Shown in pieces: positions 4,636 through 21,003 of a DNA stretch of 64,000 nt. Source of the DNA: a virus (taxonomy: Duplodnaviria > Heunggongvirae > Uroviricota > Caudoviricetes); IMG/VR virus record IMGVR_UViG_3300020045_008999, positions 160,001-224,000 of that record. The stretch is one strand, 5' to 3'. The notes beneath the pieces are model-generated. The model was not told the DNA's origin, did no database searches, and saw only the letters and a program-made list of their open reading frames with translations. A program made the translations under genes and the position numbers. Positions within the stretch are counted from its first letter, which is position 1, and each line of letters starts with the position of its first letter.

Positions 4636-5487
4636 TTATTTTAAACCATCTTCAATTTCTAATAGCAAGTCATTGAAATTTTCATCATTTAATGATAAGT
4701 CATCATTCCAGATACTAAAATAGCGTTGGTACTTTAGAATCAATTTAATGTTTTCAGCATTATCTTGTAACAATTGTGGTAAGTAGGTATGATTAAAATA
4801 AAATTCTTCACCCACTTCAATGTCATTATCACCCGAATGGGTGGATATTAAATCATTATTACAATGGAAGTTGCCTTTAATCGTTTTGGGACAACCAATA
4901 AGAGTGCTTATTTGGTTAGAATTGCATACAAAATCACAATTAATTACTTCCGGGGATCCTACCAGGGATGTTATATTATTAAGCATGCAATAAATATTAC
5001 CCTTGATAGTATTTGGAATACCTTTAAATGAGGTTAAATTATTACTAGAACAATCAAAATCACCACCCACCGAAGTAGGTGCACCTTCCAATGTAGTCAA
5101 ATCGTTACCACCACATCTGAAGTGTAGACCAACCTCAACCGGACTACCATGCAGCGATCTTAGTTTATTTTCGACACAATCATACGCGTTCCCCACTATT
5201 GATGGACCACCAATCAAATTAACTAATTTGTTGTCAGCACAATCAAAGTAGTTTCCTACTTCATAAGGGCAACCATCTAATGTGGTTAGCATATTACTAG
5301 AACAGATGAAATCCTTACTGACTTTTCCAAAACGCAGGGGTAACTTAGTTAAACTTTCCATATATAAATTCACATCACCATCTACATCAATAGATCCATC
5401 CGAGTTTATGGTATAGTTTTTAATATTATATTTATCACAAATTGAATCAATACGATCCTTTTCTTCTTTACTGATTAAGTTCTTCAT
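4636..5487 (-). CDS. LRR family A protein (long)
   Basis: Conserved caps and 22-aa repeats. Confidence 0.92.
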   Translation of the reverse strand: MKNLISKEEKDRIDSICDKYNIKNYTINSDGSIDVDGDVNLYMESLTKLPLRFGKVSKDFICSSNMLTTLDGCPYEVGNYFDCADNKLVNLIGGPSIVGNAYDCVENKLRSLHGSPVEVGLHFRCGGNDLTTLEGAPTSVGGDFDCSSNNLTSFKGIPNTIKGNIYCMLNNITSLVGSPEVINCDFVCNSNQISTLIGCPKTIKGNFHCNNDLISTHSGDNDIEVGEEFYFNHTYLPQLLQDNAENIKLILKYQRYFSIWNDDLSLNDENFNDLLLEIEDGLK

Positions 5488-5536
5488 AGTACTATATATT
5501 AGATATTAAAAACTCACATGGAATCATAATATTTAT

Positions 5537-5544
5537 TACATTTG
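5537..5544 (+). promoter_or_regulatory. Bacteroidota-type -7 box, antisense to the LRR array
   Basis: TACATTTG upstream of the ATG at 5583. Confidence 0.5.
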
Positions 5545-5582
5545 TACCCATCATTAATAATATGCTGTAAATATACTCAATT

Positions 5583-6036
5583 ATGTCTATCAGTTTGAAA
5601 ACCATACCCCCAAATTATTCACCGGTTTTATTCGAAATGTTTTACATGGTGCCCGATGAAAAAACGGGGGAAGAATATTATTACTTCAAGGATAAAACGA
5701 TTAGCCGTGATCGCTATACTCCTATATTTCTGAAATGAATTAAAATCAACACATATGAATTTTCATTTTATAGTAGTATAAAAGGGGAATACGGTCGTTT
5801 TTTTTACAATTGAATTTGGATTGGGGTTCAGAACTATCAACGAAATTCAAGGACTTTTTACATACGGTAGATTTATAATGGATAATGATTATGAATTATC
5901 GTTGGACTCATGTAAAAAGATTTATGATTTAAATCTGACCATTGGCTATTATGATAACCAGGGTGTTGAGATAATTGAATATGATCAGATGGCAATACAA
6001 CGCCGCATTACCATCAATGATATTTTATATTCTTAA
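5583..6036 (+). pseudogene. Probable decayed gene inserted antisense in the array
   Basis: ATG 5583; in-frame TGA 5736-5738; same frame stays open to a T8 run (5798-5805), where removing one T joins ORF 5821..6036, which ends QRRITINDILYS. Confidence 0.5.
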
Positions 6037-6038
6037 TA

Positions 6039-6641
6039 TTATTCTAGGCCATCTTTAATTTCATCAAGCAATTCTTGAAAGTTTTCATCATTCAATGATA
6101 GATCGGCATTCCAGATCTCAAAATGTCGCTGATATTTTAAAATTAGTTTAATGTGTACAATATTATCTTGTAATAGTTGTGGTAATTCATCACCTATGCA
6201 TCTAAATTTACCACCCAATTCAATATCTATATCACCGGAATAGGTAGAAATTATCTCACTATGTATGTAATTAATATCCCCACCAATTATGTGGGGAGTC
6301 CCCTCTAATGAAGTCAGCTCATTACCATAACAATGAAAATTACCACCTACCGATGATGGCCCACCTATTAATGAAGTTAATTGATTGCAAGAACAACTAA
6401 AATCACCACCAACCGTAATTGGGGATCCCTCTAATGTAGTCAGTTTATTAACACTACAATTAAAATTACCACTGACATTATTAAATGTTAATGGTAATTT
6501 ATTAAATTTCAGTAATGCTAAATTTACATCACCATTAACATCAATCGATCCATCTGAAGTGATATTATAATTTTCAATATTGAGATTGGTGCATATTGAA
6601 TCAATTCGATCCTTTTCTTCTTTACTAATTAAGTTCTTCAT
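6039..6641 (-). CDS. LRR family A protein
   Basis: Conserved caps and 22-aa repeats. Confidence 0.92.
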   Translation of the reverse strand: MKNLISKEEKDRIDSICTNLNIENYNITSDGSIDVNGDVNLALLKFNKLPLTFNNVSGNFNCSVNKLTTLEGSPITVGGDFSCSCNQLTSLIGGPSSVGGNFHCYGNELTSLEGTPHIIGGDINYIHSEIISTYSGDIDIELGGKFRCIGDELPQLLQDNIVHIKLILKYQRHFEIWNADLSLNDENFQELLDEIKDGLE

Positions 6642-6660
6642 GGTTTAATAGGGTTTCATT

Positions 6661-6703
6661 ATATATAAAATCTAATAACTCAAAGTGGTCAGCTCAGATA
6701 CTA
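6661..6703. repeat. Empty/collapsed form of the intergenic element
   Basis: Left flank (tatataaaatctaataactcaaagtggtcagc, cf. 7864-7898) joined directly to right flank (tcagatacta, cf. 11344-11353). Confidence 0.65.
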
Positions 6704-7306
6704 TTCTAAACCATCTTCTATTTCAGTTATCAAAACCTGGAAGTTTTCTTCGTTTAATGTTAAGTCATCGTTCCAGATCTCAAAATGTCGCTGATATTTT
6801 AAAATTAGTTTAATGTGTACAATATTATCTTGTAATAGTTGTGGTAAGTTGTTACAAATACTCATATTGACAAAACCATTCACTTCAATATCTACATCAC
6901 CTGCATAGGTAGAAGTTAACTTGTTATATGCACAAATTAAATTACCACCAATTGTGTGAGGTGCACCTTCTAATGTAGATAGTTGATTATTATAGCACTG
7001 ATAATTACCACCTACTGATGATGGACCTCCTACTAATGAAGTTAAGTTGTTCCTATAACAATGAAAATTATAGCCCACCGATTGTGGAGCACCTTCTAAT
7101 GTAGATAGTTGATTAGTATCACAACAAAAATTGTCACTTACCGTACCAAACTGCAAGGGTAGTTTTTCTAGTTTCCACCTTACAAATAACATACTTCCAT
7201 CTACATCAATAGACGCATCCGGATTAATGGAATAGTTTTTTATGCGGTATTGCTTACATATTAAATCAATTTGATCCTTTTCTTCTTTACTAATTAAGTT
7301 CTTCAT
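6701..7306 (-). CDS. LRR family A protein
   Basis: Conserved caps and 22-aa repeats. Confidence 0.92.
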   Translation of the reverse strand: MKNLISKEEKDQIDLICKQYRIKNYSINPDASIDVDGSMLFVRWKLEKLPLQFGTVSDNFCCDTNQLSTLEGAPQSVGYNFHCYRNNLTSLVGGPSSVGGNYQCYNNQLSTLEGAPHTIGGNLICAYNKLTSTYAGDVDIEVNGFVNMSICNNLPQLLQDNIVHIKLILKYQRHFEIWNDDLTLNEENFQVLITEIEDGLE

Positions 7307-7318
7307 AAATTCATTCTT

Positions 7319-7858
7319 TTATTCTAATCCCTCTTCTATTTCTAATATCAAATCTTTAAAGTTATCAACATTAAGTGTCAGATCATCATTCCAAATCATA
7401 AAGTGTCTCTGGTACTTCAAGATCAGTTTAATGTGTATAATATTATCTTGTAATAATTGTGGTAATTCATTATTAGACAATTCCACGTCACCCACCAATT
7501 CAATATCTATATCCCCGGAATAGGTAGACGTTAACTTGTTACGTGAACAAATTAAATCACCTACAACCGTATGAGGTGCCCCCTCTAATGAAGTTATTTC
7601 ATTATAATAACAACTAAAATCACCACCAACGGTAATCGGCCCACCCTCTAAGGAAGTTAGGTTGTTCATATAACAATAGAAATCACCACTCACTTTATTA
7701 AATTTTATTGGAAATTCCACTAAATCAACATTGACTATTCTAACATAACCATCTACATCAATAGACCCATCCGGATTAATGCTATACTTCATGATGCTAT
7801 ATTGGGTACATATTGAATCAATTCGATCCTTTTCTTCTTTGGTAATTAAGTTCTTCAT
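7319..7858 (-). CDS. LRR family A protein (short)
   Basis: Conserved caps and 22-aa repeats. Confidence 0.92.
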   Translation of the reverse strand: MKNLITKEEKDRIDSICTQYSIMKYSINPDGSIDVDGYVRIVNVDLVEFPIKFNKVSGDFYCYMNNLTSLEGGPITVGGDFSCYYNEITSLEGAPHTVVGDLICSRNKLTSTYSGDIDIELVGDVELSNNELPQLLQDNIIHIKLILKYQRHFMIWNDDLTLNVDNFKDLILEIEEGLE

Positions 7859-7894
7859 ATGTTATATATAAAAATCTAATAACTCAAAGGGGAC

Positions 7895-8120
7895 CAGCGA
7901 ACCGATAGGTGAGCTGCATATTAAACTAAACTTTAACGTTTTTTAACATTATAAATTTGCATATTAATTTAACTTTTATTAACTTTGTGTTGGCACTTTA
8001 CACTCAAGTACTACACTATAAAGTGCCAACATAAAGATACAATATTATTTTCATATACACAAGAATTTTAACAACGTTGTTAACATTTATATTTCAGCAC
8101 TATGTCCTCGCTTCGCTCGG
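7895..8120. repeat. Intergenic element copy E1
   Basis: Top-strand hairpin 7895-7916; + promoter TTTG 7956 / TAACTTTG 7980-7987; 18-bp inverted repeat 7983-8000 / 8019-8036; - promoter TATCTTTA 8039-8032 with TTG 20 nt upstream; bottom-strand hairpin 8106-8120. Confidence 0.9.
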
Positions 8121-8225
8121 ACTAATCATTATATATATTTTGCCTCTTATAATCTAAACTTTATTTATTCTTTACGTATAGTGTAGTTGTTAACTACTGG
8201 TTTATAAGGTACCACCATGAGGATA

Positions 8226-8963
8226 CTATTCTAAACCATCTTCTATTTCGCTTATCAAAACCTGGAAGTTTTCTTCATTTAAGGTAAGATCATCATTCCA
8301 TATCTCAAAGTATCGCTGATATTTTAAAATTAGCTTAATAACAACGTTGTTATGATCCATATTAGACTTAAGGAGTGGCGGTAATGTACCACCTGGTGAA
8401 AAATGACCACTCACTTCGATATCAATATCACCAGAATAAGTGGATGTCAATTTGTTATCATAACATACAAAATCCCCGCCAATCTTAGCAGGGGAACCAT
8501 CTAAGGAGATTAACTGATTTTCATAACAGTGAAAATTATTACCGACACTAACCGGAGCACCCTTTAACGATGTTAATCTGTTAAAACCACAAACAAAACT
8601 ACCCCCAACTATATGGGGACAACCCTCTAATGAAGTCAAATTATTATGACTAATGATGAAATCACCATCGACACTAACCGGGGCACCCTCTAATGAGGTT
8701 AAAATATTATGACTAATGATGAAATCACCATCGACACTAACCGGGGCACCCTCTAATGAAGTCAAATTATTAAACGAACATGTAAATCTACCAGATATTG
8801 CACCAAATTTCAATGGCAACTTATCTAATTTTTCATTATATAAATTTATACTATCATCTACATCAATAGACCCATCCGGATTAATGGAATAGTTTTTTAT
8901 ACTGTATTGATCACATATTAAATCAATTTGATCCTTTTCTTCTTTAGATATTAAGTTCTTCAT
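8226..8963 (-). CDS. LRR family A protein
   Basis: Conserved caps; recent internal duplication TSLEGAPVSVDGDFIISHN x2. Confidence 0.92.
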   Translation of the reverse strand: MKNLISKEEKDQIDLICDQYSIKNYSINPDGSIDVDDSINLYNEKLDKLPLKFGAISGRFTCSFNNLTSLEGAPVSVDGDFIISHNILTSLEGAPVSVDGDFIISHNNLTSLEGCPHIVGGSFVCGFNRLTSLKGAPVSVGNNFHCYENQLISLDGSPAKIGGDFVCYDNKLTSTYSGDIDIEVSGHFSPGGTLPPLLKSNMDHNNVVIKLILKYQRYFEIWNDDLTLNEENFQVLISEIEDGLE

Positions 8964-8974
8964 AAAGCTATATA

Positions 8975-9577
8975 TTATTCTAGGCCATCTTCAATTTCTA
9001 ATATCAAATCTTTAAAGTTATCTACGTTCAATGTTAAGTCATCATTCCAGATCTCAAAATGTCGCTGATATTTTAAAATTAGTTTAATGTGTCTAATATT
9101 ATCTTGTAATAATTGTGGTAATAGATTACCAGATAAATCCACATCAGCATCCACTTCGATATCAGTATCACCGGAATATGTAGAAGTCAGGTAGTTACGT
9201 AAACAAGTTAAATCACCACCAACCGTATGAGGTGCCCCCTCTAATGAAGTTATTTCATTATAATAACAATAAAAATTACCACCTACATAAGTAGGCGAAC
9301 CTACTAATGATGTCAATTTGTTTTCATAACATTCAAAATATCCACCAACCGTTGTAGGTGCACCATCTAATGAAGTCAGTAGATTTAAACCACAATTAAA
9401 AAACCCGGTAACTTTACCAAATCGCAATGGTATTTTAGTTAATTTTGTATTATGTAAATTAACATCATCATCTACATCAATAGTACCATCCGGGTTAATG
9501 CTATACTTCATGATGCTATATTGGGTGCATATTGAATCAATTCGATCTTTTTCTTCTTTACTAATTAAATTCTTCAT
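8975..9577 (-). CDS. LRR family A protein
   Basis: Conserved caps and 22-aa repeats. Confidence 0.92.
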   Translation of the reverse strand: MKNLISKEEKDRIDSICTQYSIMKYSINPDGTIDVDDDVNLHNTKLTKIPLRFGKVTGFFNCGLNLLTSLDGAPTTVGGYFECYENKLTSLVGSPTYVGGNFYCYYNEITSLEGAPHTVGGDLTCLRNYLTSTYSGDTDIEVDADVDLSGNLLPQLLQDNIRHIKLILKYQRHFEIWNDDLTLNVDNFKDLILEIEDGLE

Positions 9578-9588
9578 AAAACTATATA

Positions 9589-10317
9589 TTATTCTAGGCC
9601 GTCTTCGATTTCTACTATCAAATCCTGGAAGTTATCTTCATTGAGTGTAAGGTCTTCGTTCCAGATAAAGAAATGTCTCTGGTACTTTAAAATTAGTTTA
9701 ATATGGTATATATTGTCTACAAATAGAACAGGCAAGCATTGACTATCGAAGTATCCCTCACCACTTATTTCTATATCTACATCACCGGCATAAGTAGAAG
9801 CCAAATTATTATCTGTACAAATTAAATCACCGCCAATGGTAACCGGAGCACCCTCTAGGGTAGTTAATTGATTTTCGTCACAATAAAAACTACCAACAAC
9901 GTTAACTGGTCCACCCACTAACGTAGTTAATTGATTCCTTGTACATGAAAAGTCACCACCCACCAATTGTGGCACCCCTTCAAAACTAGTTAATTGATTA
10001 TCGTCACAATAAAAATCACCGCCAATGGTAACCGGCCCACCCACTAACGTAGCTAATTGATTATCATCACAATAAAAAAACCCACCCACCGTAGTAGGTG
10101 AGTCCTCTAGTGATGTCAGTTTGTTTGAAACACAATCGAAATTACCAAATACTTTATTAAAATTTAATGGAATTTTTTCCAAACCGGTCCTCCTTAAACT
10201 CACATCACCATCAACATCAATAGATCCATCTGAGTTAATCGTATAATTCTTAATTTTATATTTTATACATATTAAATCGATCTGGTCCTTTTCCTCTTTA
10301 CTAATTAAGTTCTTCAT
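9589..10317 (-). CDS. LRR family A protein
   Basis: Conserved caps; shares an identical 110-bp block with gene 371..1414. Confidence 0.92.
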   Translation of the reverse strand: MKNLISKEEKDQIDLICIKYKIKNYTINSDGSIDVDGDVSLRRTGLEKIPLNFNKVFGNFDCVSNKLTSLEDSPTTVGGFFYCDDNQLATLVGGPVTIGGDFYCDDNQLTSFEGVPQLVGGDFSCTRNQLTTLVGGPVNVVGSFYCDENQLTTLEGAPVTIGGDLICTDNNLASTYAGDVDIEISGEGYFDSQCLPVLFVDNIYHIKLILKYQRHFFIWNEDLTLNEDNFQDLIVEIEDGLE

Positions 10318-10341
10318 ATGTTAGCGGTGTTTGTCTATATA

Positions 10342-11079
10342 TTATTCTAGCCCGTCGTCAATTTCTAATATTAAATCATTGAAGTTATCAATATTCAATG
10401 ATAAGTCATCATTCCAGATCTCAAAGTGTCTCTGGTATTTTAAAATCAATTTGATGTGGTGTATGTTAGCCATAAGCTGATGAGGTAACCTATTATCACC
10501 AAATTCAAGTTCACTATCCTCACTATCCACTTCTATGTCAATATCACCTGAGTATGTAGATGTCAATTTATTCGCACTACAATTAAAATTGCCACTTATA
10601 GTGATAGGCAAACCCACCATTGTAGTCAATATATTAAAATTACAGTTAAAATCACCACCAACAGAAATAGGCGATCCCTCTAATGACGTCAGCCGATTCT
10701 CAATACAATCAAACTGACCACCCACCGTATGAGGTCCACCCACTAAGGTAGATAAATCATTGTCACCGCAATCAAAATCACCGCCCACTGTATGTGGTGC
10801 GCCCTCTAATGAAGTTATTTGATTAAAGTGGCAGTAGAAATCACCACCAACTGTATGAGGAGATCCTTCCAATGAAGTTATTTGATTAAACGAGCATATG
10901 AAATGACCCGAAACTTTACCAAATTTCAATGGCAATTGTATTAATTTTTTACTCGAAATAAACACATCCCCATCAACATCAACAGATCCATTCGAATTAA
11001 TCGAATAATTTTCAATTTGATAATCTTTACATATTAAATCGATCTGGTCCTTTTCACCTTTGCTAATTAAATTTTTCAT
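10342..11079 (-). CDS. LRR family A protein
   Basis: Conserved caps and 22-aa repeats. Confidence 0.92.
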   Translation of the reverse strand: MKNLISKGEKDQIDLICKDYQIENYSINSNGSVDVDGDVFISSKKLIQLPLKFGKVSGHFICSFNQITSLEGSPHTVGGDFYCHFNQITSLEGAPHTVGGDFDCGDNDLSTLVGGPHTVGGQFDCIENRLTSLEGSPISVGGDFNCNFNILTTMVGLPITISGNFNCSANKLTSTYSGDIDIEVDSEDSELEFGDNRLPHQLMANIHHIKLILKYQRHFEIWNDDLSLNIDNFNDLILEIDDGLE

Positions 11080-11114
11080 AAGCTATATATAAAAATTAGA
11101 TCCATCAAAGCGGC

Positions 11115-11350
11115 CAGCGAACCGATAGGTGAGCTGCATATTATATTAAACTTTAACAGTTTTAATTTGTAAATGTTAGATATATTCATTAACTTTGTGT
11201 TGGTACCTTACACTCAAGTACTACACTATAAAGTGCCAATATAAAGATACAAAATATAGTAATACAAAGCAAGTCTTTAATGTAAAAGTTATGAACGATG
11301 TTAACGAAGTGTCTTATCAACGATGTTATAAACAATCGCTCACTCAGACA
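11115..11350. repeat. Intergenic element copy E2
   Basis: Hairpin 11115-11136 identical to E1; TTTG 11166 / TAACTTTG 11190-11197; inverted repeat 11193-11210 / 11229-11246; opposing promoter; gttatcaac-like repeats; truncated right end cgctcact 11337-11344. Confidence 0.9.
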
Positions 11351-11962
11351 CTACTGTAGCCCCTCTTCTATTTCAGAAATCAAATTCTGGAAGTTTTCTT
11401 CATTTAATGTAAGATCATCATTCCATATAAAGAAATACCTCTGGTACTTTAATATTAGTTTAGTAACAACGTTATTATGTTCCATATTAGACTTAAGGAG
11501 TGGCGGTAATGTATCACCTGGACAAAAAAATCCTAAAACTTCAATATCCACATCACCAGAATAAGTTGAGGTTAATTTGTTACCATTGCACTCAAAATCA
11601 CCACCAACAGTAACCGGGCCACCCACAAGTGAAGTCAATTTATTTCCATGACAGTGGTAATCACCACCAACAGTATGTGGACCACCATCTAATGAAGTCA
11701 ACTGATTTTGACCACATCTAAAATCACCACCAACAGTATGTGGACCGTCCTCTAATGTAGTCAAGAAGTTCGATGTACAAGAAAATCTACCAGAAATCTT
11801 ACCAAATTTCAATGGGAACTTAACTAAGTTCTCACTATATAAATTCACATTGCCATCCACATCAATCGATCCATCTGAGTTGATTGTATAATTCTCGATG
11901 CCGTATTGATCACATATTAAATCGATCTGGTCCTTTTCACCTTTGCTAATTAAATTTTTCAT
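11351..11962 (-). CDS. LRR family A protein
   Basis: Conserved caps and 22-aa repeats. Confidence 0.92.
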   Translation of the reverse strand: MKNLISKGEKDQIDLICDQYGIENYTINSDGSIDVDGNVNLYSENLVKFPLKFGKISGRFSCTSNFLTTLEDGPHTVGGDFRCGQNQLTSLDGGPHTVGGDYHCHGNKLTSLVGGPVTVGGDFECNGNKLTSTYSGDVDIEVLGFFCPGDTLPPLLKSNMEHNNVVTKLILKYQRYFFIWNDDLTLNEENFQNLISEIEEGLQ

Positions 11963-11972
11963 AAGCTATATA

Positions 11973-12515
11973 TTATTCTAATCCATCTTCAATTTCAGCT
12001 ATCAAATCAGCAAAGTTATCTGCATTCAAAGTTAAGTCATCGTTCCAGATTTCAAAATGCCTCTGGAACTTCAAGATTAGTTTAATATGATCCAGGTTAT
12101 CCAATAATTGCTGTGGTAGTAGACTGTTGTCGGCACATCTTACAATTCCGGATACGTCAATATCCGTATCACCTGTGTAAGTAGAAGTTAAATTATTATA
12201 ACTACAATAGAAATCACCACCAACCGTATGTGGGGATCCCTCTAATGAAGTTAAAACATTGTACCCACATCTAAAATCACCACCAACTGTAGCCGGGCAA
12301 CCGTCTAATGAAGTCAAGTAATTACCAAGGCAACTGAAATTACCAGTCACTTTTCCAAATTTCAAAGGTATAACAGATATTTCTTCTTCGTGTAATGCTA
12401 CATCACCATTCACATCAACTGAACCATCTGAGTTGATCGAATAGTTCTCGATGTCGTATTGTTTACATATTAAATCAATTTGATCCTTTTCTTCTTTAGA
12501 TATTAAATTCTTCAT
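11973..12515 (-). CDS. LRR family A protein (short)
   Basis: Conserved caps and 22-aa repeats. Confidence 0.92.
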   Translation of the reverse strand: MKNLISKEEKDQIDLICKQYDIENYSINSDGSVDVNGDVALHEEEISVIPLKFGKVTGNFSCLGNYLTSLDGCPATVGGDFRCGYNVLTSLEGSPHTVGGDFYCSYNNLTSTYTGDTDIDVSGIVRCADNSLLPQQLLDNLDHIKLILKFQRHFEIWNDDLTLNADNFADLIAEIEDGLE

Positions 12516-12526
12516 AAAACTATATA

Positions 12527-13135
12527 TTATTTCAACCCCTCTTCAATTTCTGCTATCAAATTCAGGAAGTTTTCCTCATTCAAAGATAGATCATCGTTCC
12601 AGATTTCAAAATGTCTCTGGTACTTCAAAATTAGTTTAATATGATCCATATGATCAATAACTAGCTGAGGTAACTGTAAAAATGTGTCACCTGAGTATAA
12701 ATCGCCAGCGAATTCAATATCAATATCCCCAGAATAGGTAGACGTAATGTTATTATTAGTACATTTTAAATCACCACCAATAATACTTGGACTACATTCC
12801 AACGTAGTTAAATTGTTATAACTACAATAAAAATCACCAACTACCGTATGTGGTCCACCCTCCAATGAAGTTAATTCATTATAATAACAATTAAAATCAC
12901 CACCAATTATAGTAGGCGATCCCACCAATGTAGTCAAATGATTAAACGAACATGAGAAATGACCAGAAACTTTACCAAATTTTAATGGTAATTGTATTAA
13001 TTTTTTCCTCGAAATAAACACATCCCCATCAACATCAATAGATCCATCCGAGTTAATTTTATATTTCTTTATATTGTATAGATAGCATATCGAATCGATA
13101 CGATCCTTTTCTTCTTTGTTAATTAAGTTCTTCAT
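12527..13135 (-). CDS. LRR family A protein
   Basis: Conserved caps and 22-aa repeats. Confidence 0.92.
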   Translation of the reverse strand: MKNLINKEEKDRIDSICYLYNIKKYKINSDGSIDVDGDVFISRKKLIQLPLKFGKVSGHFSCSFNHLTTLVGSPTIIGGDFNCYYNELTSLEGGPHTVVGDFYCSYNNLTTLECSPSIIGGDLKCTNNNITSTYSGDIDIEFAGDLYSGDTFLQLPQLVIDHMDHIKLILKYQRHFEIWNDDLSLNEENFLNLIAEIEEGLK

Positions 13136-13146
13136 GTAGCTATATA

Positions 13147-13707
13147 TTATTCTAATCCCTCTTTAATTTCTGCTATCAAATCATTGAAGTTTTCTTCGTT
13201 CAATGTTAGATCCTCATTCCAGATCATAAATGGTCGCTGGTACTTCAGAATCAATTTAATATGACCCAGGTTATCCACCAATTGCTGAGGTAGGTGGTTA
13301 GAATTGACACTTGTGACATCGGAAATGCATCTTATAATACCGGATACCTCAATATCAGTATCACCAGCGTAAGTAGAAGTTAGAACATTATACGTGATAT
13401 CAAAATAACCCCCAACATATGCCGGGCATCCCACCAATGATGTCAGCATATTATCCTCACAATCAAAATCACCACCAACATTCTTAGGGGAACCTACCAG
13501 TGATTTCAAGCCATTCGAATCACATCGGAAAACACCAGATACATTATTGAATTTTACTGGAATTACGATTAAGCCGCTATCCGCTAAATTGACATCCCCC
13601 TTTACATCAATCGATCCATCCGAGTTAATCGAATAATTCTTGATGCCAAATTCTTCACATATCAAATCAATTTGATCCTTTTCTTCTTTACTAATTAAGT
13701 TCTTCAT
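13147..13707 (-). CDS. LRR family A protein (short)
   Basis: Conserved caps and 22-aa repeats. Confidence 0.92.
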   Translation of the reverse strand: MKNLISKEEKDQIDLICEEFGIKNYSINSDGSIDVKGDVNLADSGLIVIPVKFNNVSGVFRCDSNGLKSLVGSPKNVGGDFDCEDNMLTSLVGCPAYVGGYFDITYNVLTSTYAGDTDIEVSGIIRCISDVTSVNSNHLPQQLVDNLGHIKLILKYQRPFMIWNEDLTLNEENFNDLIAEIKEGLE

Positions 13708-13717
13708 GGCCTATATA

Positions 13718-14569
13718 TTATTCTAACCCCTCGTTAATTTCTGCTATCAAATCATTGAAATTTTCTTCGTTCAGACTAAGATCTTCATTCCAGATCATAA
13801 AATGCCGCTGGTACTTTAAAATTAATACTATGTGTTCTATATTTTCATTAAACAGTTGAGGCAGTGTACTATTTGTAAAGCATACGTCAGCCCTCAACTC
13901 AATGTCTATATCACCAGAATATGTAGATGTCAACAGGTTTTTTTTACAATCGAAATAACCACAAGTAGCAGTTGGGGCACCCTCTAAAGATGTCAATTTA
14001 TTATGACCACATAGCAAATCACCGCCAACCCACTCAGGACCCCCCACTAATGAAGTCAACTGATTGTGACTACAATAAAAATTACCTTTCACTGTGGTAG
14101 GTGAGCCATGTAATGTAGTCAACATATTAAAGAAGCAGCTATAGCCTTTTCCGATCGTAGTAGGCCCATCCACTAATGAAGTCAAACGATTATCATCACA
14201 GTTAAAATGCCCACCAACCTCAACCGGACCCCCCACTAATGAAGTCAAATAATTATGACCACAGTCAAAATATCCACTCACCGTAGTAGGACAACCCACT
14301 AATGAAGTCAATTGATTTTTGACACAATCGAAACCACCCACCGTAGTAGGACAACCCACTAATGAAGTCAATTGATTATCATTACAAATAAAATTCCCAG
14401 ATACCGTATTAAATTTTATTGGCAACTCTTTTAATTTTTGCTCATGTAAGTTTACATCACCATCAACATCAATCGACCCATCCGAGTTGATAGTATAATT
14501 TTCGATTCGGTGGTCATTACATATCTCATCGATACGATCCTTTTCTTCTTTGGTAATTAAATTCTTCAT
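13718..14569 (-). CDS. LRR family A protein (long)
   Basis: Conserved caps; near-identical tandem NQLTSLVGCPTTV units. Confidence 0.92.
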   Translation of the reverse strand: MKNLITKEEKDRIDEICNDHRIENYTINSDGSIDVDGDVNLHEQKLKELPIKFNTVSGNFICNDNQLTSLVGCPTTVGGFDCVKNQLTSLVGCPTTVSGYFDCGHNYLTSLVGGPVEVGGHFNCDDNRLTSLVDGPTTIGKGYSCFFNMLTTLHGSPTTVKGNFYCSHNQLTSLVGGPEWVGGDLLCGHNKLTSLEGAPTATCGYFDCKKNLLTSTYSGDIDIELRADVCFTNSTLPQLFNENIEHIVLILKYQRHFMIWNEDLSLNEENFNDLIAEINEGLE

Positions 14570-14579
14570 GGTCTATATA

Positions 14580-15120
14580 TTATTCTAAGCCGTCTTTAAT
14601 ATCTGCAATCAGATTGTTAAAGTTTTCTTCATTCAATGTTAGATCATCATTCCAGATCATGAAATGCCGCTGGTACTTTAAAATTAATAAGATGTGCTCT
14701 ATATTATCATTAAACAGTTGAGGTAACGGATTACTTACAATATTAACATTCTCACCTATTTCAATATCAATATCCATTAAATAGGTGGTGGTTATATTAT
14801 TAAAGGAACAATCGAAACTACCCAAAATAGTAACCGGACATCCATTCAATGAAGTTAGACTATTATTGTTACAATAAAAATACCCACCCACCGTAGTAGG
14901 TGAGCCCTCCAGAGATGTCAATTTGTTTAAAACACAATTGAAATTACCAGACACAATGTTGAATCTTACCGGAAATTTAGTTATTTTTTTTATCAAATAA
15001 ATCTACATTGCCGTGCACGTCAATTGATCCATCTGAGTTAATTGAATAGTTTTTAATATTTTCATTAGAGCATATTCTATCGATACGATCCTTTTCTTCT
15101 TTGCTTATTAAGTTCTTCAT
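14580..15120 (-). pseudogene. LRR family A gene frameshifted in an A8 homopolymer
   Basis: MKNLISKEEKDRID starts at 15120; span is 541 nt (3n+1); A8 run (T8 at 14984-14991) restores the frame into ORF 14580..14996 if A7. Confidence 0.85.
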
Positions 15121-15131
15121 ATAAATATTTA

Positions 15132-15734
15132 CTATTCCAACCCTTCTTCAATTTCCGATATCAAATCCTTGAAGTTTTTTTTATTTAAGGTAAGATCATC
15201 ATTCCAAATATAAAAATGTCGCTGGTACTTTAAGATCAATTTGATGTGATTTATATTTGTGATAAGTGATTTATATATTTTTTTACCTGGGTAAAAATCG
15301 CCACCAAAATCAATATCGATATCACCAGAATACGTAGAACGGATAGGTGTATCCTCAAAAAATAAATCACCACCAATGGTATGAGGTGCTCCCTCTAATG
15401 AAGTTAATTCAATATTACCACTGCAAACAAAATCACCATTAACCACATTCGGGGCACCATTTAGTGATGTTAGTCTATTATCACTACACTTAAAATTACC
15501 ACCCACCGTAGTAGGACCACCCTCTAATGATGTCAATAGATTAAAATTACATCCAAAATCACCAGTTATCTTACCGAACTTCAATGGCAGCTTAACTATA
15601 TCTATATTAAATATACTGACATCACCATCCACATCAACTGAACCATCCGAGTTGATCGAATAATTCACGATTCCGTATTGATCACATATTAAATCAATAC
15701 GATCCTTTTCCTCTTTACTAATTAAGTTCTTCAT
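15132..15734 (-). CDS. LRR family A protein
   Basis: ORF track 15132..15764; family-conserved start at 15734. Confidence 0.92.
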   Translation of the reverse strand: MKNLISKEEKDRIDLICDQYGIVNYSINSDGSVDVDGDVSIFNIDIVKLPLKFGKITGDFGCNFNLLTSLEGGPTTVGGNFKCSDNRLTSLNGAPNVVNGDFVCSGNIELTSLEGAPHTIGGDLFFEDTPIRSTYSGDIDIDFGGDFYPGKKIYKSLITNINHIKLILKYQRHFYIWNDDLTLNKKNFKDLISEIEEGLE

Positions 15735-15851
15735 ATATCTATATATAAAATCCAAATCACTCAAAGGTGGCCGACTTACGTAGTTATAATCGCAGTGAGC
15801 GGCATAATTCTACCCATCTTGTTCCAATCTTTATGTTAGCGTAGGTATGAG

Positions 15852-16419
15852 TTATTCAAGTATTTGTGAAATTATCCACGTTCTATACAATTTTGCTAGA
15901 TCATACGATTCCGGATTTGCTAATTGGTCCATGCGTAATCCCAGCCTAAATAATTCGATAATCGTATCTATATCATTATTGATCCCGGAAAAACATCCAT
16001 CAATGTTGGTGGTAATTCCGTCAAATGAATGAATGAATGTGAAAATCAATATCACAAAAATAATTACCACCAACTTTACTTGGACCGAATTCCAATGATG
16101 TTAGTTTATTTTCACAGCAATAAAAACACTCACCGATAATACTTGGACCGAATTCCAATGATGTTAATTCATTTTCACAACACAAAAAATCACCAGTAAC
16201 TTCAATAGGACAACCGTATAATGTACTGAGCTTATTTTGTACACATATAAAGTCACCAATAACCTTATTAAACCGCAATGGTAGCTCAGTTAAATTTTGA
16301 CCACATAGATCAACCCCATCATAAGCATCAATTGTACCATCGTCATTAATGTCGTAGCCGGAAATTGAATACTTCTGACAGATATCCTCGATTTTATTAT
16401 TTCGTTCAGAATTATCCAT
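15852..16419 (-). pseudogene. Diverged LRR gene (family B tail) frameshifted at a (CATT)4 microsatellite
   Basis: ORF 16021..16419 and ORF 15852..16073 join in frame if one 4-bp unit at 16024-16039 is removed (568-4=564 nt); restored C-terminus LYRTWIISQILE. Confidence 0.8.
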
Positions 16420-16465
16420 AATTGTATTTTTCCTAAGTATTGAATATAAAAAGAAACTCGTAATG

Positions 16466-17206
16466 CTATTTATTTAATTGTTTAGTGTATTTTTTCTTTA
16501 TCATTTGTTTTGTTAGCTTTTCCTTATCACCATCTTCAACAATTCTAATTATTATACTATCGATACCAACGTCCTTGATCATCTTATCTAAGGTAACAGA
16601 ATGACCAGATTTTAAATTGTTTAGTAAGCCATCATTTTTACTAGTATATACTATAAATTTTTTATTTACCTGATTGGTTATGACAACAGAATAACGCTTG
16701 CTTTGTGTGAATAAATGAGATGGATATAGGTATAACTTTTCATGCAATTGTTTTAATGACTTATATCCCAAAACATCTTTCATAATATTGATCGACTTAT
16801 GTACTTCGGTATCCTCTGCTCCTTTGATAAATAGATTGTATCTTTCGTTGGGATTATTATTATCGTTAAATTCAATATTGGTTAGATCCTGGACCATAGA
16901 ATATTCTCTTATAAGCCTTTCTTCATCAGCGCGATCAGATGACAACATTTTGACAATTAGTCGACTACCAGAGTCCAGAATTCCCTTTATTAGTTTATTC
17001 TTTCTTACATTTATATTAGTTGCCTTTTGTAGATCTAATATGTGGAATGCAATCCTCCCCTTTATATTACTAGTTGATCCAATATAAAAATCATTTATCA
17101 TATACACCCCAGATGTATACGTATCTTCAATATCCGCAAACCATTTTATGTTATCAGAAACATAATTTATCAATAGTTTTTTCTTATCAACCTCAGTTTT
17201 TGTCAT
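16466..17206 (-). CDS. GIY-YIG family endonuclease
   Basis: SGVYMINDFYIGSTSNIKGRIAFH motif plus downstream E and N (EERLIREY...LTN). Confidence 0.75.
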   Translation of the reverse strand: MTKTEVDKKKLLINYVSDNIKWFADIEDTYTSGVYMINDFYIGSTSNIKGRIAFHILDLQKATNINVRKNKLIKGILDSGSRLIVKMLSSDRADEERLIREYSMVQDLTNIEFNDNNNPNERYNLFIKGAEDTEVHKSINIMKDVLGYKSLKQLHEKLYLYPSHLFTQSKRYSVVITNQVNKKFIVYTSKNDGLLNNLKSGHSVTLDKMIKDVGIDSIIIRIVEDGDKEKLTKQMIKKKYTKQLNK

Positions 17207-17485
17207 TTGTATATAAATTAATCAATTATATACAAATGATATGTGAAAGTTTAGTGATGTGTAAAATAAATAATCAAATAAATACTAGTGAATATTTAAC
17301 ATATTAAATTTGTATAAGAACTTTAAATTTCTTAACTTTGTGTTGGCACCTTATACTCTACTACTAGACTATAGTGTGCCAACATAAAGATACTAATTAA
17401 TACAATACAAAACAAGACTCATAGACAAAAGTTATCAACAATCGTTCACTGCGTTTATAAATACGTTAGCGACACCACTCTGATA

Positions 17486-18088
17486 CTATTCTAATCCGTC
17501 TTCAATTTCTGCTATCAAATTCTGGAAGTTTTCCTCATTTAAAGTTAAGTCATCATTCCAGATGAAGAAATGTCTTTGGTACTTCAAGATCAATTTAATG
17601 TGATGTACATTATTCTTCAATTGCTGTGGTAGGATGTTTAAGCTACATGTTACAATTCCGGATACGTCAATATCCGTATCACCTGAGTAAGTAGAAGTTA
17701 ATTTATTATTACTACAATATAAATTACTACCAACCGATTGTGGTGCCCCCACTAATGAAGTTAAACCATTGTACCCACATCTGAAATTCCCACCAACAGA
17801 TGTAGGTGATCCTTCCAATGACGTCAACATATTAATACTACAATAAAAATCATCACCAACTGTATGAGGGGATCCCTCTAAGGTAGTTAATATGTTCATT
17901 GAACAAGAAAATTTACCGGTCACATTACCAAATCGCAATGGTAATTGTTTTAAGCGTTTATGTTCTAAATCAACATCTCCCTCAACGTCAATGGATCCAT
18001 CAGCATTAATAGTGTAATGCCTAATATGAGATCTTCTACAAATCGAATCAATACGGTTCTTTTCCTCTATACTAATTAAGTTTTTCAT
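17486..18088 (-). CDS. LRR family A protein
   Basis: Conserved caps and 22-aa repeats. Confidence 0.92.
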   Translation of the reverse strand: MKNLISIEEKNRIDSICRRSHIRHYTINADGSIDVEGDVDLEHKRLKQLPLRFGNVTGKFSCSMNILTTLEGSPHTVGDDFYCSINMLTSLEGSPTSVGGNFRCGYNGLTSLVGAPQSVGSNLYCSNNKLTSTYSGDTDIDVSGIVTCSLNILPQQLKNNVHHIKLILKYQRHFFIWNDDLTLNEENFQNLIAEIEDGLE

Positions 18089-18211
18089 AAGCTATATATA
18101 CTATTATTATTTTTTCAATTTTTACCAAAACAGCGAATGGAAATATAATATATACTATGTAGGAATGATGAAGTTTATTAAATATTCTAGATTAACAACT
18201 CTATCACGCTC

Positions 18212-18445
18212 AGTAGATTATCGGATACCAGCTTTTATCCCAGGGATAATGATCCAGCTGCCCATATAAAGATCGAAAAGTGATAGAACAATCGAAAATG
18301 TTAAATATACCAAACCCAAGACTACACATCGAATAGATACAACAGTGTTATACCTATCGAAGAATATATGTTAATTCATAGTAGATTATCGGAAACCAGC
18401 TTTTATCCCAGGGATAATGATCCAGCTGCCCATATAAAGATCGAA
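18212..18445. repeat. 66-bp direct repeat x2 with internal palindrome
   Basis: 18212-18277 and 18380-18445 differ at one base; contain TTATCCC-A-GGGATAA nested in CAGCT...AGCTG. Confidence 0.9.
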
Positions 18446-18741
18446 CCGCAATTAATTATTCAAGATAATATACCATTCAAATATCAACGGATGTCATAAT
18501 ACAAATTAAAACATATTTAAATACCCAACCTGGTGAAATGTCAAAAAAAATGACATACATACCGGGAATTACCAGTTAGAACAATCCTAATGATTTAAAT
18601 ATGAATATAATTGAGCTATTTAAATACAGTGGATTTAAGCCACTTAAATTTTAAAATGGTGTCCTAGTATTAAAAAAATATAATAAAGCCTTATATTAGG
18701 CAACATTGAAGGGATTTAATGAATTTACTTATATAAGACAG

Positions 18742-18830
18742 CAGCGAACGAAGTGAGCTGTATAATTATACAAAATTTTAACAACGTTGTTATCAACAAT
18801 CGCTCACTACGTTTATAACTACATTAGCGA
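18742..18830. repeat. Intergenic element copy E4 lacking the promoter/IR core
   Basis: Left hairpin cagcgaacgaagtgagctg 18742-18760 followed closely by right-side ttaacaacgttgttatcaacaatcgctcact. Confidence 0.8.
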
Positions 18831-18844
18831 CCACCATCTAGATA

Positions 18845-19585
18845 TTATTCTAATCCTTCTTCAATTTCGGATATCAAATCCTTGAAGTTTTCTTCATTCA
18901 ATGTCAGATCATCATTCCATATAAAGAAATATCTCTGGTACTTAAAGATCATTCTGAAATCAACCATGTGTTCACCATCACCGTCTTTACCAAATTGTAC
19001 CGGCATGTACTTTGTGTCATAATATAAAGTGCCCTTTAATTCAATATCATCAGCACAATACGTGGATGATATTGAATTACCTTCACAATGATAACCACCT
19101 CCAATCATAGTAGGTGATCCTATTAAGTTACTTAGTTGGTTATCGGCACAACAAAAATTTCCATTAACACTATTTGGACCACCTTCCAATGAAGTTAAAA
19201 TGTTCCTATGACAATAAAAATCCACATTAATGATATCCGGTGATCCCTTTAACGAAGTTAATTGGTTATAAGAACAAAAGAAACTATTTCGGACTAACTT
19301 AGGGCCCCAGTCTAAATTAACCAAGTTATTAGACTGTCCGTAAAATGTCCCACCAACCTCATGCGGACATCCTTTCAATGAAGTTAACTGATTTCCATTG
19401 CAATAAAAATCACCAGATACTTTATTAAAGCTCAATGGTAAATCAGTTAATTCCTTTTTGGTTAAATTAACATCACCATCAACGTCAATAGTCCCATCTG
19501 AGTTTATCGAGTAATTAAATATATTATATTTCTTACAAATTGAATCAATACGATCCTTTTCCTCTTTAGATATTAAATTCTTCAC
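18845..19585 (-). CDS. LRR family A protein (first of array, GTG start)
   Basis: Conserved caps and 22-aa repeats. Confidence 0.9.
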   Translation of the reverse strand: MKNLISKEEKDRIDSICKKYNIFNYSINSDGTIDVDGDVNLTKKELTDLPLSFNKVSGDFYCNGNQLTSLKGCPHEVGGTFYGQSNNLVNLDWGPKLVRNSFFCSYNQLTSLKGSPDIINVDFYCHRNILTSLEGGPNSVNGNFCCADNQLSNLIGSPTMIGGGYHCEGNSISSTYCADDIELKGTLYYDTKYMPVQFGKDGDGEHMVDFRMIFKYQRYFFIWNDDLTLNEENFKDLISEIEEGLE

Positions 19586-19636
19586 ATGTTTATCTTTATT
19601 TCAATTATATATAAAATTCAGATCCCTCAAAGCGGC

Positions 19637-19874
19637 CAGCGAACGCAGTGAGCTGCATATTAACATAGGTAAATTTTAACGTAGATTTTAACAGTTTTAA
19701 TTTGTATATGTCCTCAACTTTTACTACCTTTATGTTGGCACACTATAGTGTAGTACCAGAGTATAAGGTGCCAATATAAAGATACAAAATATAGTAATAC
19801 AAGTCAAGTGTTTTCTGTAAAAGTTATCAACGATGTTATCAACGATGTTATAAACAATCGCTCACTGCGTTCGC
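19637..19874. repeat. Intergenic element copy E5 with inverted core
   Basis: Perfect 15-bp terminal inverted repeat GCGAACGCAGTGAGC (19639-19653) / GCTCACTGCGTTCGC (19860-19874); IR arms 19728-19741 / 19768-19781; three 12-bp gttatcaacgat-type repeats 19823-19858. Confidence 0.9.
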
Positions 19875-19909
19875 GGCACCATCTAAATCCCCATTAGATC
19901 TATTCGAAT

Positions 19910-20596
19910 TTAATTTAATGGAATTTTCAACCAGGTCATGTTATTATACATTTCCAATTCACCGGATCCACCAGTGTACTCATTTACTAAATGATGAAGT
20001 GCCTTGGAATTGATCTGGATACGCATATAGACAGTATTGAACTCTGTGAAAGTTTCTTTGGTTGATGCCCACACAAATCCCTTAACGAATTCCTCCAGGT
20101 AAATAGTTGGAATTCTAGGTACTTCTAACTCATATTTATTCACCTGGAATCCATAATCCATCAAAGACCAAACCAAATGGAATGAAGTGATCAAACAAGT
20201 TCGGATATTCACATCCCGGACACCCTTCTTAATGACATATCCAGAATTGATAGCAGCACTTATATCACTCATAATAGGATCCGTAGTTTTCAAATGCAAA
20301 TTATATAACTTAGTAGTTATTTTAATATGACCACATGCCCATATCGATCCAAGGTAATAGGCCCGGGTAGAATCCATCTTATCAATTCGAAAGTATTCGG
20401 AATCCAAGCTTATAGTGCGGGAATCAGAAACAGTCTTACACTGAATCGAACAGTATTTTCTAGGCCTGGTCAATTCAAATCTATTGTCATATTTAAATGA
20501 CTTTTTACAATTGGAACAGATGCAATCCACCCATAATAATTCTTTATTTTTGACCGGGCGGCCTGGGCGTTTCTTATTACTCATAGTTGAATTCAT
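19910..20596 (-). CDS. Degenerate LAGLIDADG-like protein with N-terminal AT-hook-like motif and Cys4 zinc finger
   Basis: KRPGRPVK; CSNC...YCSIQC; AYYLGSIWACGHI and FVKGFVWAS resemble the two LAGLIDADG helices without the acidic residues. Confidence 0.55.
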   Translation of the reverse strand: MNSTMSNKKRPGRPVKNKELLWVDCICSNCKKSFKYDNRFELTRPRKYCSIQCKTVSDSRTISLDSEYFRIDKMDSTRAYYLGSIWACGHIKITTKLYNLHLKTTDPIMSDISAAINSGYVIKKGVRDVNIRTCLITSFHLVWSLMDYGFQVNKYELEVPRIPTIYLEEFVKGFVWASTKETFTEFNTVYMRIQINSKALHHLVNEYTGGSGELEMYNNMTWLKIPLN

Positions 20597-20658: not shown

Positions 20659-20894
20659 GTTAAGTATAAATAATTTGTTTTTGAATCTAAACTTTTTAAT
20701 AGGTCAAATCCTACTTAGTTTAAGACTCTAATATTATTTCCATATTATCCCATATTATTATACATCACCTATCTATATATTCCGAAAACAAAACACATAA
20801 TTAATATACTCACTTTTCATGTACATTATCACACATATCTATACATTTCGACATATTTAAATGATTTGATTTATTTAATAAAACACATAATTAA

Positions 20895-20913
20895 TTGCTC
20901 ACTGCGTTCGCAA
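20895..20913 (-). repeat. Isolated G.A/GCA hairpin of the element family
   Basis: Bottom strand ttgc-ga-ac-GCA-gt-ga-gcaa. Confidence 0.75.
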
Positions 20914-21003
20914 CCCCATAGAATTGTATTTAAATCATCTTTCAGGTTGTTTTCAGGTTGATTTCATGTATGTATTATCTTTCATCTTTTATATCATTAA
21001 ATA

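Follow-up and report, generated by a model that had tools for sequence, protein, structure and literature searches.

What is a symmetric element of about 240 bp doing, repeated between blocks of leucine-rich repeat (LRR) genes in a very large phage? The question is raised by bases 160,001-224,000 of the virus record IMGVR_UViG_3300020045_008999, a stretch of 64,000 nt that we call the window. The record is 596,785 bp long with 31.9% G+C, is 98% complete by the CheckV estimate and encodes a T4-type portal protein (PF07230, E=9e-53). We argue, at somewhat better than even confidence, that the element is a composite cassette, at once regulatory and recombinational, which heads minus strand blocks of LRR genes in this T4-portal megaphage and is akin to the promoter-early stem-loop (PeSL) cassettes that shuffle genes in T4-type phages (Arbiol et al. 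2010, PMC2839356; Comeau et al. 2014, PMC4122927).

The initial annotation had placed four copies in the window, and they are there. The pattern TTGGYAC-N20-32-GTGCCAA, which describes the paired arms at the centre of the element, has 4 matches in the window where shuffles predict 0.01, and it occurs nowhere else in the genome. The cores that it delimits are at 7990-8029, 11200-11239, 17343-17382 and 19735-19774. An nhmmer profile of the four copies recovers 7895-8123, 11115-11349, 17270-17474 and 19637-19879. Two further matches of the profile lie outside the window: a fifth copy, E0, 2 kb to its left at genome 157764-157947, and a fragment of a left end at genome 150655-150704. Neither the arm pattern nor the profile finds further copies in the rest of the 596,785-bp genome. 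There are five full copies and some fragments, all within genome 150-181 kb, and the full copies lie inside 22 kb.

All of them are in an array of 38 LRR-family genes that fills 30 kb (genome 149,935-180,596), with every gene on the minus strand. The array proteins have an N-terminal domain (MKNLISKEEKD...), leucine-rich-type repeats of 21 residues and a C-terminal domain (...LILKYQRHFEIWNDDLTLN...EIEDGLE), and no Pfam match at the thresholds used. Inside the blocks the genes are 10-12 bp apart. The cassettes occupy only the gaps between blocks and always have the same orientation relative to the genes. Since all array genes are on the minus strand, a point that the initial annotation had not made, each cassette is the upstream region of a block and its minus strand promoter is the sense promoter. 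Read in the direction of the genes, the last stop codon of the previous block is followed by the right mini-hairpin, one to three 12-nt repeats of the GTTATCAAC type and the sense promoter CTTG-N20-TAYCTTTA. Next come a 60-bp palindrome (a 26-bp core between 17-bp arms), a second promoter in reverse complement and the left mini-hairpin. About 35 nt with a conserved TATATATA then lead to the ATG of the block's first gene. The array and the four full copies in the window are laid out as follows, in window coordinates.

4636-19585, minus strand: LRR-family gene array, the part inside the window; paralogues with common N- and C-terminal domains and 2-8 repeats of 21 amino acids
7895-8122, unstranded: cassette E1, with its left mini-hairpin at 7895-7916, structured on the plus strand
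7956-7959 (TTTG) and 7980-7987 (TAACTTTG), plus strand: E1 plus strand promoter
7980-7996 and 8023-8039: arms of the E1 palindrome, with the core at 7997-8022
8032-8039 (-7, TATCTTTA) and 8060-8063 (-33, CTTG), minus strand: E1 sense promoter
8067-8085: E1 repeat AACAACGTTGTTAAC
8104-8122, minus strand: E1 right mini-hairpin, GTCC GA GC GAA GC GA GGAC
11115-11349, unstranded: cassette E2, with its left hairpin at 11115-11136 and its plus strand promoter at 11166-11197
11190-11206 and 11233-11249: arms of the E2 palindrome, with the core at 11207-11232
11242-11249 (-7) and 11270-11273 (-33), minus strand: E2 sense promoter
11288-11335: E2 12-nt repeats, GTTAT(C/G/A)AAC
E2 right hairpin: truncated, abutting the stop codon of the gene at 11351-11962
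17309-17470, unstranded: cassette E3, without a left hairpin of its own; plus strand promoter at 17309-17340
17333-17349 and 17376-17392: arms of the E3 palindrome, with the core at 17350-17375
17385-17392 (-7) and 17413-17416 (-33), minus strand: E3 sense promoter
17431-17443: E3 GTTATCAACAATC
17444-17470: E3 right hairpin with one 12-nt loop unit, structured on the minus strand
19637-19876, unstranded: cassette E4, with its left hairpin at 19637-19655
19701-19704 (TTTG) and 19725-19732 (TACCTTTA), plus strand: E4 plus strand promoter
19725-19741 and 19768-19784: arms of the E4 palindrome; the core at 19742-19767 is inverted relative to E1-E3 and the relatives
19777-19784 (-7) and 19805-19808 (-33), minus strand: E4 sense promoter
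19823-19846: E4 repeats, two GTTATCAACGAT
19860-19874: E4 right hairpin, forming a perfect 15-nt terminal inverted repeat (TIR) with the left hairpin

The promoters are the first line of evidence. The sense promoter, CTTG-N19/20-TAYCTTTA, is on the gene strand in all eight copies, that is the five here and one in each of the related contigs L008, L009 and L011. A 20-nt spacing had been claimed for the eight promoter halves of the window copies. It holds: TTTG/TTG-N20-TAnnTTT(G/A) is found on both strands in 4/4. When the relatives and E0 are counted the spacing is N20 in 7/8 copies, and E0 has N19 on both sides. Conservation across the eight copies peaks on both -33 and both -7 boxes, and the spacers diverge in sequence with their length kept. 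On the plus side the -33 box is 89% conserved, the spacer 59% and the -7 box 82%, with the arms at 91-92%. The minus side has the same pattern (-7 97%, spacer 68%). The initial annotation took the constant spacing as a sign of selection, and divergent spacers that keep their length speak for this. The claim must be narrowed, however. The sense -7 box lies in the palindrome arm, so a mirrored -7 on the plus strand is automatic, and the independent evidence for the plus strand promoter is therefore its -33 box and the fixed spacing only. That promoter is a perfect consensus in E1-E3 and L009; in E0 it has decayed (ATTG-N19-TAATTTCA) and the palindrome is kept. Judged on its sequence, we consider the antisense promoter probably functional. 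The opposed pair described earlier is there too, with a correction to its layout: the promoters face each other, their predicted starts are ~35 nt apart, and the transcripts would converge and overlap by ~35 nt.

Does the phage use such promoters elsewhere? The strict motif TTTG-N19-21-TAnnTTTG has 51 sites genome-wide, 35 of them in the intergenic 13% of the genome. Nearly half (24/51) have a same-strand gene starting no more than 200 nt downstream, and the usual distance to its ATG is 17-30 nt. This enrichment and the gene orientation imply that the phage uses a Bacteroidota-type promoter class. Its promoters match the Bacteroidota sigma consensus and would fit a Bacteroidota host. No host was assignable from a structural protein, which has six matches of mixed source, the best at 49% identity (uncultured Caudoviricetes, an enrichment-culture virus, a Maribacter phage and Synechococcus phages). 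With a relaxed motif, the intergenic minus strand promoters of host type in the array are those of the five cassettes and one site at genome 154,039-154,069. The cassettes thus supply nearly all the host-type promoters of the array.

The second line of evidence is that the cassettes behave as units of exchange. The initial annotation had made conservation in related genomes a test of its idea, and the cassette is kept in L008, L009 and L011, contigs of another metagenome with one copy each, at 70-86% nucleotide identity. These relatives were reached through protein look-ups; locus searches with one LRR protein or with an alignment of the paralogues gave nothing. Contigs L005-L007 and L012-L015 have array genes and no cassette. 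There was no cassette match by blastn in the phage collection. An exact-pattern search of viral_contigs found no arm pair, and for the right arm alone six chance matches, all rejected by the nhmmer profile. The same kind of search of metagenome_contigs gave one chance match, in an ordinary coding region of an unrelated contig. In one relative the cassette is 80-94% identical, and the array genes are ~70% identical.

The copies do not have simple histories. The nearest relative of the left half of E4 is L011 (94%) and that of its right half is E2 (94%). The left half of E2 is closest to E1 (90%), and the right half of L011 to L008 (91%). Such discordance between left and right halves means that the copies are mosaic. 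Halves are 89-94% identical between non-adjacent copies and the flanks mostly 70-80%, a crude comparison with a background identity of ~70-75%. L011:1-416 matches window 18783-19186 at 93.8% identity, which puts a full cassette in L011 at the position of the core-less copy E5 here; the promoter and palindrome module is present there and absent from this genome. L008 is itself a mosaic with best-matching segments at genome 175.1-175.7, 171.2-173.5 and 177.3-178.1 kb, and its similarity to E3 ends at the left edge of the promoter module. The partial cassettes of the window and two endonuclease-like genes at the cassettes are these.

6661-6703, unstranded: 'empty' junction, with the gene-proximal left flank TATATATAAAATCTAATAACTCAAAGTGGTCAGC fused directly to the right flank TCAGATACTATTCTAA
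15772-15805, plus strand: orphan left end, a long-loop hairpin with CGACTTACGTAGTTATAATCGCAGTGAGCGG, upstream of the gene at 15132-15764
16466-17206, minus strand: GIY-YIG endonuclease-like gene, the first gene downstream of the E3 sense promoter and the genome's only GIY-YIG match
18742-18830, unstranded: core-less cassette E5, a left hairpin (CAGCGAACGAAGTGAGCTG) fused to the right part (repeats and right hairpin), without both promoters and the palindrome
19910-20596, minus strand: endonuclease-like gene (phrog_4645, E=3e-6), immediately upstream of E4
20897-20911, minus strand: solitary right-type mini-hairpin GCGAACGCAGTGAGC

The GIY-YIG gene sits between the E3 promoter module and the displaced left end of E3, and the orphan left end and E3 together bracket 1.5 kb with this gene and an LRR fragment. 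The other endonuclease-like gene is bracketed by ~27-nt direct repeats, AAT(T/C)GCTCACTGCGTTCGC..CCAT, at window 19853-19880 and 20890-20916. These are the E4 right hairpin and the solitary hairpin, and such bracketing repeats are what we would expect if the gene had been gained by exchange at hairpins. A search for endonuclease VII found no match here and none in control genomes either, so it is uninformative. A TAG stop within a variant GATACTATTCTAA closes the gene on the right-hand side of each of E0-E3 and of the empty junction (window 8226, 11351, 17486 and 6701; genome 157,959), and in most other array genes the stop is TAA. We take this as a hint that the final few codons of the neighbouring gene travel with the cassette. 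Recombination, one of the functions first proposed for the element, stands as an evolutionary pattern: discordant halves, a module present or absent at an orthologous position, and endonuclease genes at the cassettes. By analogy, these mosaic, presence/absence and endonuclease patterns look like what PeSL shuffling yields in T4-type phages.

The palindrome is the third line. It folds with -16 to -27 kcal/mol on either strand, and its z-scores reach -7.6. In E0 it persists through a compensatory G-C to A-T change in the arms, around a loop of different sequence that is 21 nt long instead of 26. This 5-bp change in arm spacing argues against a dimeric protein that reads the arms at a fixed distance and for a folded hairpin. 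One-sided arm changes leave a G.U pair on the plus strand in 5 events and on the minus strand in 2, and do not single out either strand. A search of Rfam with the palindrome gave only sub-threshold matches resembling miRNAs.

Its core can be turned around. Reverse-complemented, the E4 core agrees with the cores of L009 (25/26), E3 (23/26) and L008 (23/26); in direct orientation it matches them at only 15-17/26, and the E4 flanks are collinear with the others. The left half of L011 is 94% identical to that of E4 and includes a ~37-nt identical stretch, and the L011 core is in the standard orientation. The diverged core of E0 aligns better flipped, and it is probably flipped too. The core is flipped in E4, and probably E0, relative to the other six copies, in a comparison between copies and genomes and not within one population. 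The cores are self-complementary at 12-18/26 positions. The 'flip-flop' minute inversions of non-coding chloroplast DNA and the quasipalindrome template switches of bacteria are neutral spacer events that involve no recombinase. They too have a short loop between inverted-repeat arms that is found in either orientation among close relatives; the difference is that the arms here carry the -7 boxes of two promoters. By comparison with the chloroplast spacers, we read the flip as a template-switch inversion mediated by the hairpin. It may then be indirect evidence that the palindrome is extruded in vivo.

The ends of the cassette also fold. Left and right hairpins had been described as if they were two things. 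Both are present, but they are reverse complements of each other and not separate types. The perfect 15-nt TIR, GCGAACGCAGTGAGC, is found in E4 only, and the other copies end in hairpins that are either degenerate TIRs or equivalent to one in structure. The motif GC(G/T)AAC-loop-GTGA(G/A)C occurs genome-wide only in or beside the array, on the plus strand at left ends and on the minus strand at right ends. The fold has a 4-bp outer stem, tandem G.A, an inner stem of 2-3 bp and a loop of GCA, GAA or GATA. Covariation is seen in the outer stems (CAGC/GCTG, GTCC/GGAC, TTGC/GCAA, CGC/GCG). Of 16 hairpins that were folded, 14 are more stable on the G-rich strand than on its complement, by 2-5 kcal/mol, and in the other two the strands are about equal. 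This stable form is on the strand of the transcripts, or of the lagging-strand templates, that enter the cassette. Because each stable form sits on the entering strand we suggest, with low confidence, that the mini-hairpins may be polar boundary elements.

The E1 right end contains GCGAAGC on the minus strand, which we take to be the classic very stable DNA mini-hairpin. The d(GCGNAGC) DNA mini-hairpins of Hirao, Yoshizawa and colleagues are reportedly of extraordinary stability. The likeness lies in the C-GAA-G and C-GCA-G triloops with adjacent sheared G.A pairs. Unlike those hairpins, the ones here lie within a longer conserved stem (GC-GA-AC ... GT-GA-GC), and the loop expands by 12-nt units, up to five of them. 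The unit, GTTTATAACTAC on the plus strand, contains the palindrome GTTATAAC and is expanded inside the loop of the right hairpin: E3 and E5 have one unit each, L011 has two and L008 five. The adjacent GTTATCAACGAT repeats are similar to it. The units are located as follows.

L008:4100-4165, L011:355-395, window 17444-17470 and 18805-18830: GTTTATAACTAC units

How close is all this to a PeSL? Like PeSLs, the cassettes combine a host-sigma-type promoter with a stem-loop that overlaps the -10 region or lies just before the start (PMC2839356; PMC4122927). Both are repeated elements of intergenic DNA that cluster where the genome is plastic, ahead of accessory genes. In both, recombination between cassettes is tied to indels and replacements between related phages, and the phage here has a T4-type portal. 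The cassette differs in its Bacteroidota TTTG/TAnnTTTG promoter and in a 60-bp palindrome from which a conserved mirror promoter arises. It also has extra terminal G.A mini-hairpins and 12-nt repeats, and its sequence does not indicate terminator activity. Its five or six copies are confined to one gene family and are not spread through hyperplastic regions.

On the PeSL-like reading, the host RNA polymerase would start from CTTG-N20-TAYCTTTA, a few nucleotides into the arm. The sense mRNA would open with a hairpin, which may protect its 5' end, and would have a leader of ~170 nt. The mirrored -7 and the conserved TTTG 20 nt upstream of it would make a second, near-consensus promoter that fires the opposite way. 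If the usual distance from -7 to start holds, a distance taken from Bacteroides promoters, both transcripts would begin near the GGCAC of the arm, each with a stem-loop. The two polymerases would exclude each other, and the RNAs would overlap by the length given above. The terminal hairpins, G-rich on the strand of entering transcripts, could be polar boundaries or 3'-end elements. An activator might bind the 12-nt GTTATCAAC-type repeats that lie upstream of the sense promoter. As DNA, the cassettes would offer portable homology for exchange between blocks, the palindrome loop would flip occasionally by hairpin-mediated template switching, and cuts by homing endonucleases would add to shuffling of the PeSL type.

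Several observations weigh against this reading. A PeSL is 60-80 bp long and points one way only, and a genome has ~50 of them; the cassette is ~240 bp. The sense promoter is ~170 nt from the start codon, where the phage's other host-type promoters are 17-30 nt upstream, and at CTTG / TAnnTTTA it is further from consensus than the antisense promoter (TTTG / TAACTTTG). With only five or six cassettes for 38 genes, most array genes need other expression too. The palindrome shows one compensatory pair, and its pair count is not above that of shuffled controls. It is conserved as sequence, and an RNA, a DNA or a protein-binding role would each be possible. Neither the palindrome nor the terminal hairpins have a U-tract, and a terminator scan reports neither.

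Could the antisense promoter instead be the functional point? Each cassette would then be a face-to-face switch in which sense and antisense initiation are mutually exclusive. A factor on the 12-nt repeats or the palindrome would decide between them, and antisense RNA, running back as far as the left hairpin of the next cassette, would silence the upstream block early in infection. We consider this unlikely, though worth taking seriously. Control by sense and antisense transcription had been one of the options first raised, and the geometry, the conserved antisense -33 and the kept spacing fit it. So do the perfect consensus in E1-E3 and L009, the closeness of the predicted starts and a left hairpin that is stable only on the plus strand, the strand of any antisense RNA that reaches it from the left. 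In L011 a half cassette abuts a divergent HATPase_c_3 gene in line with the plus strand promoter, which that promoter would serve. However, this contig ends inside the palindrome before the promoter is reached. Unrelated phages and cells have homologues of that HATPase gene but no cassette. The mirrored -7 is automatic, the plus strand promoter of E0 has decayed with its palindrome kept, no plus strand genes lie to the right of any cassette in this genome, and the regulator is hypothetical. P2-like phages have single-copy face-to-face lysis/lysogeny switches with known repressors (P2 Pe/Pc, 186 pR/pL). Their promoters likewise converge, only a few tens of bp separating the starts, and occupancy and elongation therefore interfere, but here the module is repeated in a gene array and one direction has no gene to serve. 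A second pair of face-to-face strict host-type promoters, at genome 60,840-60,956 between head-to-head LRR-family genes, also favours a switch. A broader version makes the cassette a strand-polar boundary with two-fold symmetry, a repeated either/or switch between sense and antisense for the LRR blocks whose palindrome and hairpins are also break-and-exchange points aided by homing endonucleases. The incoming transcript on each strand would meet a hairpin stable only on that strand, and then a promoter firing across the shared palindrome. We find this version doubtful.

The remaining explanations address how the copies spread, why the core flips and whether the locus does anything of its own. 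A non-autonomous element like a miniature inverted-repeat transposable element (MITE), carrying promoters and inserting between array genes, would account for the perfect TIRs of E4, the empty junction at 6661-6703, the internally deleted copy at 18742-18830 and halves that are more alike than their flanks. The Correia elements of Neisseria are MITEs of this sort, with promoters, hundreds of dispersed copies and TA target duplications. They resemble the cassette as small intergenic elements with terminal inverted repeats and promoters that fold when transcribed, and differ in that a single locus, one fixed orientation and no visible target duplication are found here. The MITE-like option of the initial annotation keeps its TIRs and little else. 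Every copy is in one array and in one orientation relative to the genes, no target-site duplication is seen at E1-E4 or the empty junction, and no copy was found in the other virus and metagenome records searched. Resolvase, Y1, rve and DDE_Tnp_1 were not found in the genome, other transposase families not having been searched, and the flanking gene ends co-vary with the cassette (TAG in the GATACTATTCTAA variant). We give it little credence. A neutral spacer, copied along with gene blocks and without function of its own, has equally little to recommend it. The copies do occur only within a tandemly duplicated array, with flanking gene ends partly co-duplicated (families D15, D17). Yet conservation is patterned on promoter elements and stems instead of being uniform, hairpin stems covary, and the cassette outlasts the array genes in identity to a relative. 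Still more improbable is a programmed mini-inverton, in which a recombinase flips the core and so alters the first ~30 nt of both transcripts or a protein-binding site. The inverted E4 core between direct flanks, and probably that of E0, is the case for it. But 26 bp is far shorter than known invertible segments, there is no promoter in the core (both are in the arms and flanks), and the partly self-complementary core is a substrate for passive template-switch inversion. One or two flips among 8 copies suffice for the data. No serine recombinase or invertase was found in the genome, and its sole tyrosine recombinase is at 108 kb, 50-70 kb from the cassettes. Least probable of all is an origin of replication primed by transcription, as at T4 oriE/oriF, or a site where a primosome loads. 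The promoters, iteron-like 12-nt repeats in variable number, AT-rich spacers and d(C-GNA-G) mini-hairpins as at the phiX174/G4 origins would suit one, and over the whole genome cumulative GC skew is lowest at genome 181,244 (window 21,244), 1.4 kb from E4. That minimum is also where 38 minus strand genes give way to 57 plus strand genes, and it is inseparable from coding-strand skew; the curve is multi-modal, tracks gene-strand blocks and has its maximum at genome 422,887. The initial annotation had pointed to TTATCAACA, one mismatch from the DnaA box. It is at 17432 and 18790 as described, but the genome has 50 occurrences of it and they are not peculiar to the cassettes, no copy has a perfect DnaA box, and five copies within 22 kb are hard to square with an origin.

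Some neighbouring observations belong beside the array. TATATA(TA) lies 4-8 nt before nearly every array ATG, for example at window 7859-7880 and 12516-12526. It also precedes genes that begin only 10-12 bp past the previous stop, and it may be a translation-initiation context. Recoding TAG as glutamine was tried and rejected: it neither fused array genes nor usefully lengthened them into the cassettes. The head-to-head LRR-family paralogues at genome 60,133-61,664, ~100 kb left of the window, have start codons 45 nt apart within a perfect 16-nt inverted repeat. Their first 12 codons, reverse-complemented (MTNLITQEQKNK), form a strict TTTG-N20/21-TTAAATTTG promoter aimed at the opposite gene. 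No tRNAs were found in the window.

The 551-bp gap of the array at window 5488-6038 has small plus strand open reading frames (ORFs) and a TACATTTG box. In the relatives a conserved ORF of 90 amino acids lies on the opposite strand between array blocks (L008:1277-1549 and L013:1135-1407), and it is absent from this genome. Taken with the content of the 5488-6038 gap, this islet ORF implies that the array behaves like a hyperplastic region with islets. An ORF-free stretch of 650 bp at window 18089-18740, between an array gene and the core-less cassette, holds two ~70-nt direct repeats (~18205-18275 and ~18381-18445) with an internal TTATCCCAGGGATAA palindrome. On both strands these repeats fold no better than shuffles.

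What would a PeSL-like cassette mean for such phages? Very large phages carry big, variable families of repeat proteins, and the cassette bears on how these are expressed and diversified. It offers handles for this in the start sites predicted on both strands, the flipping loop, the strand-specific end hairpins and the 12-nt repeats as candidate factor-binding sites. The idea of a mobile regulatory cassette, which comes from T4-like coliphages of 170 kb, would then also apply to a phage of 597 kb with promoters that suit a Bacteroidota host. The mirror promoter would be an addition that is not reported for PeSLs in PMC2839356 and PMC4122927. If the antisense promoter is active, this phage would have a repeated face-to-face module of a kind otherwise found mainly in single-copy lysis/lysogeny switches.

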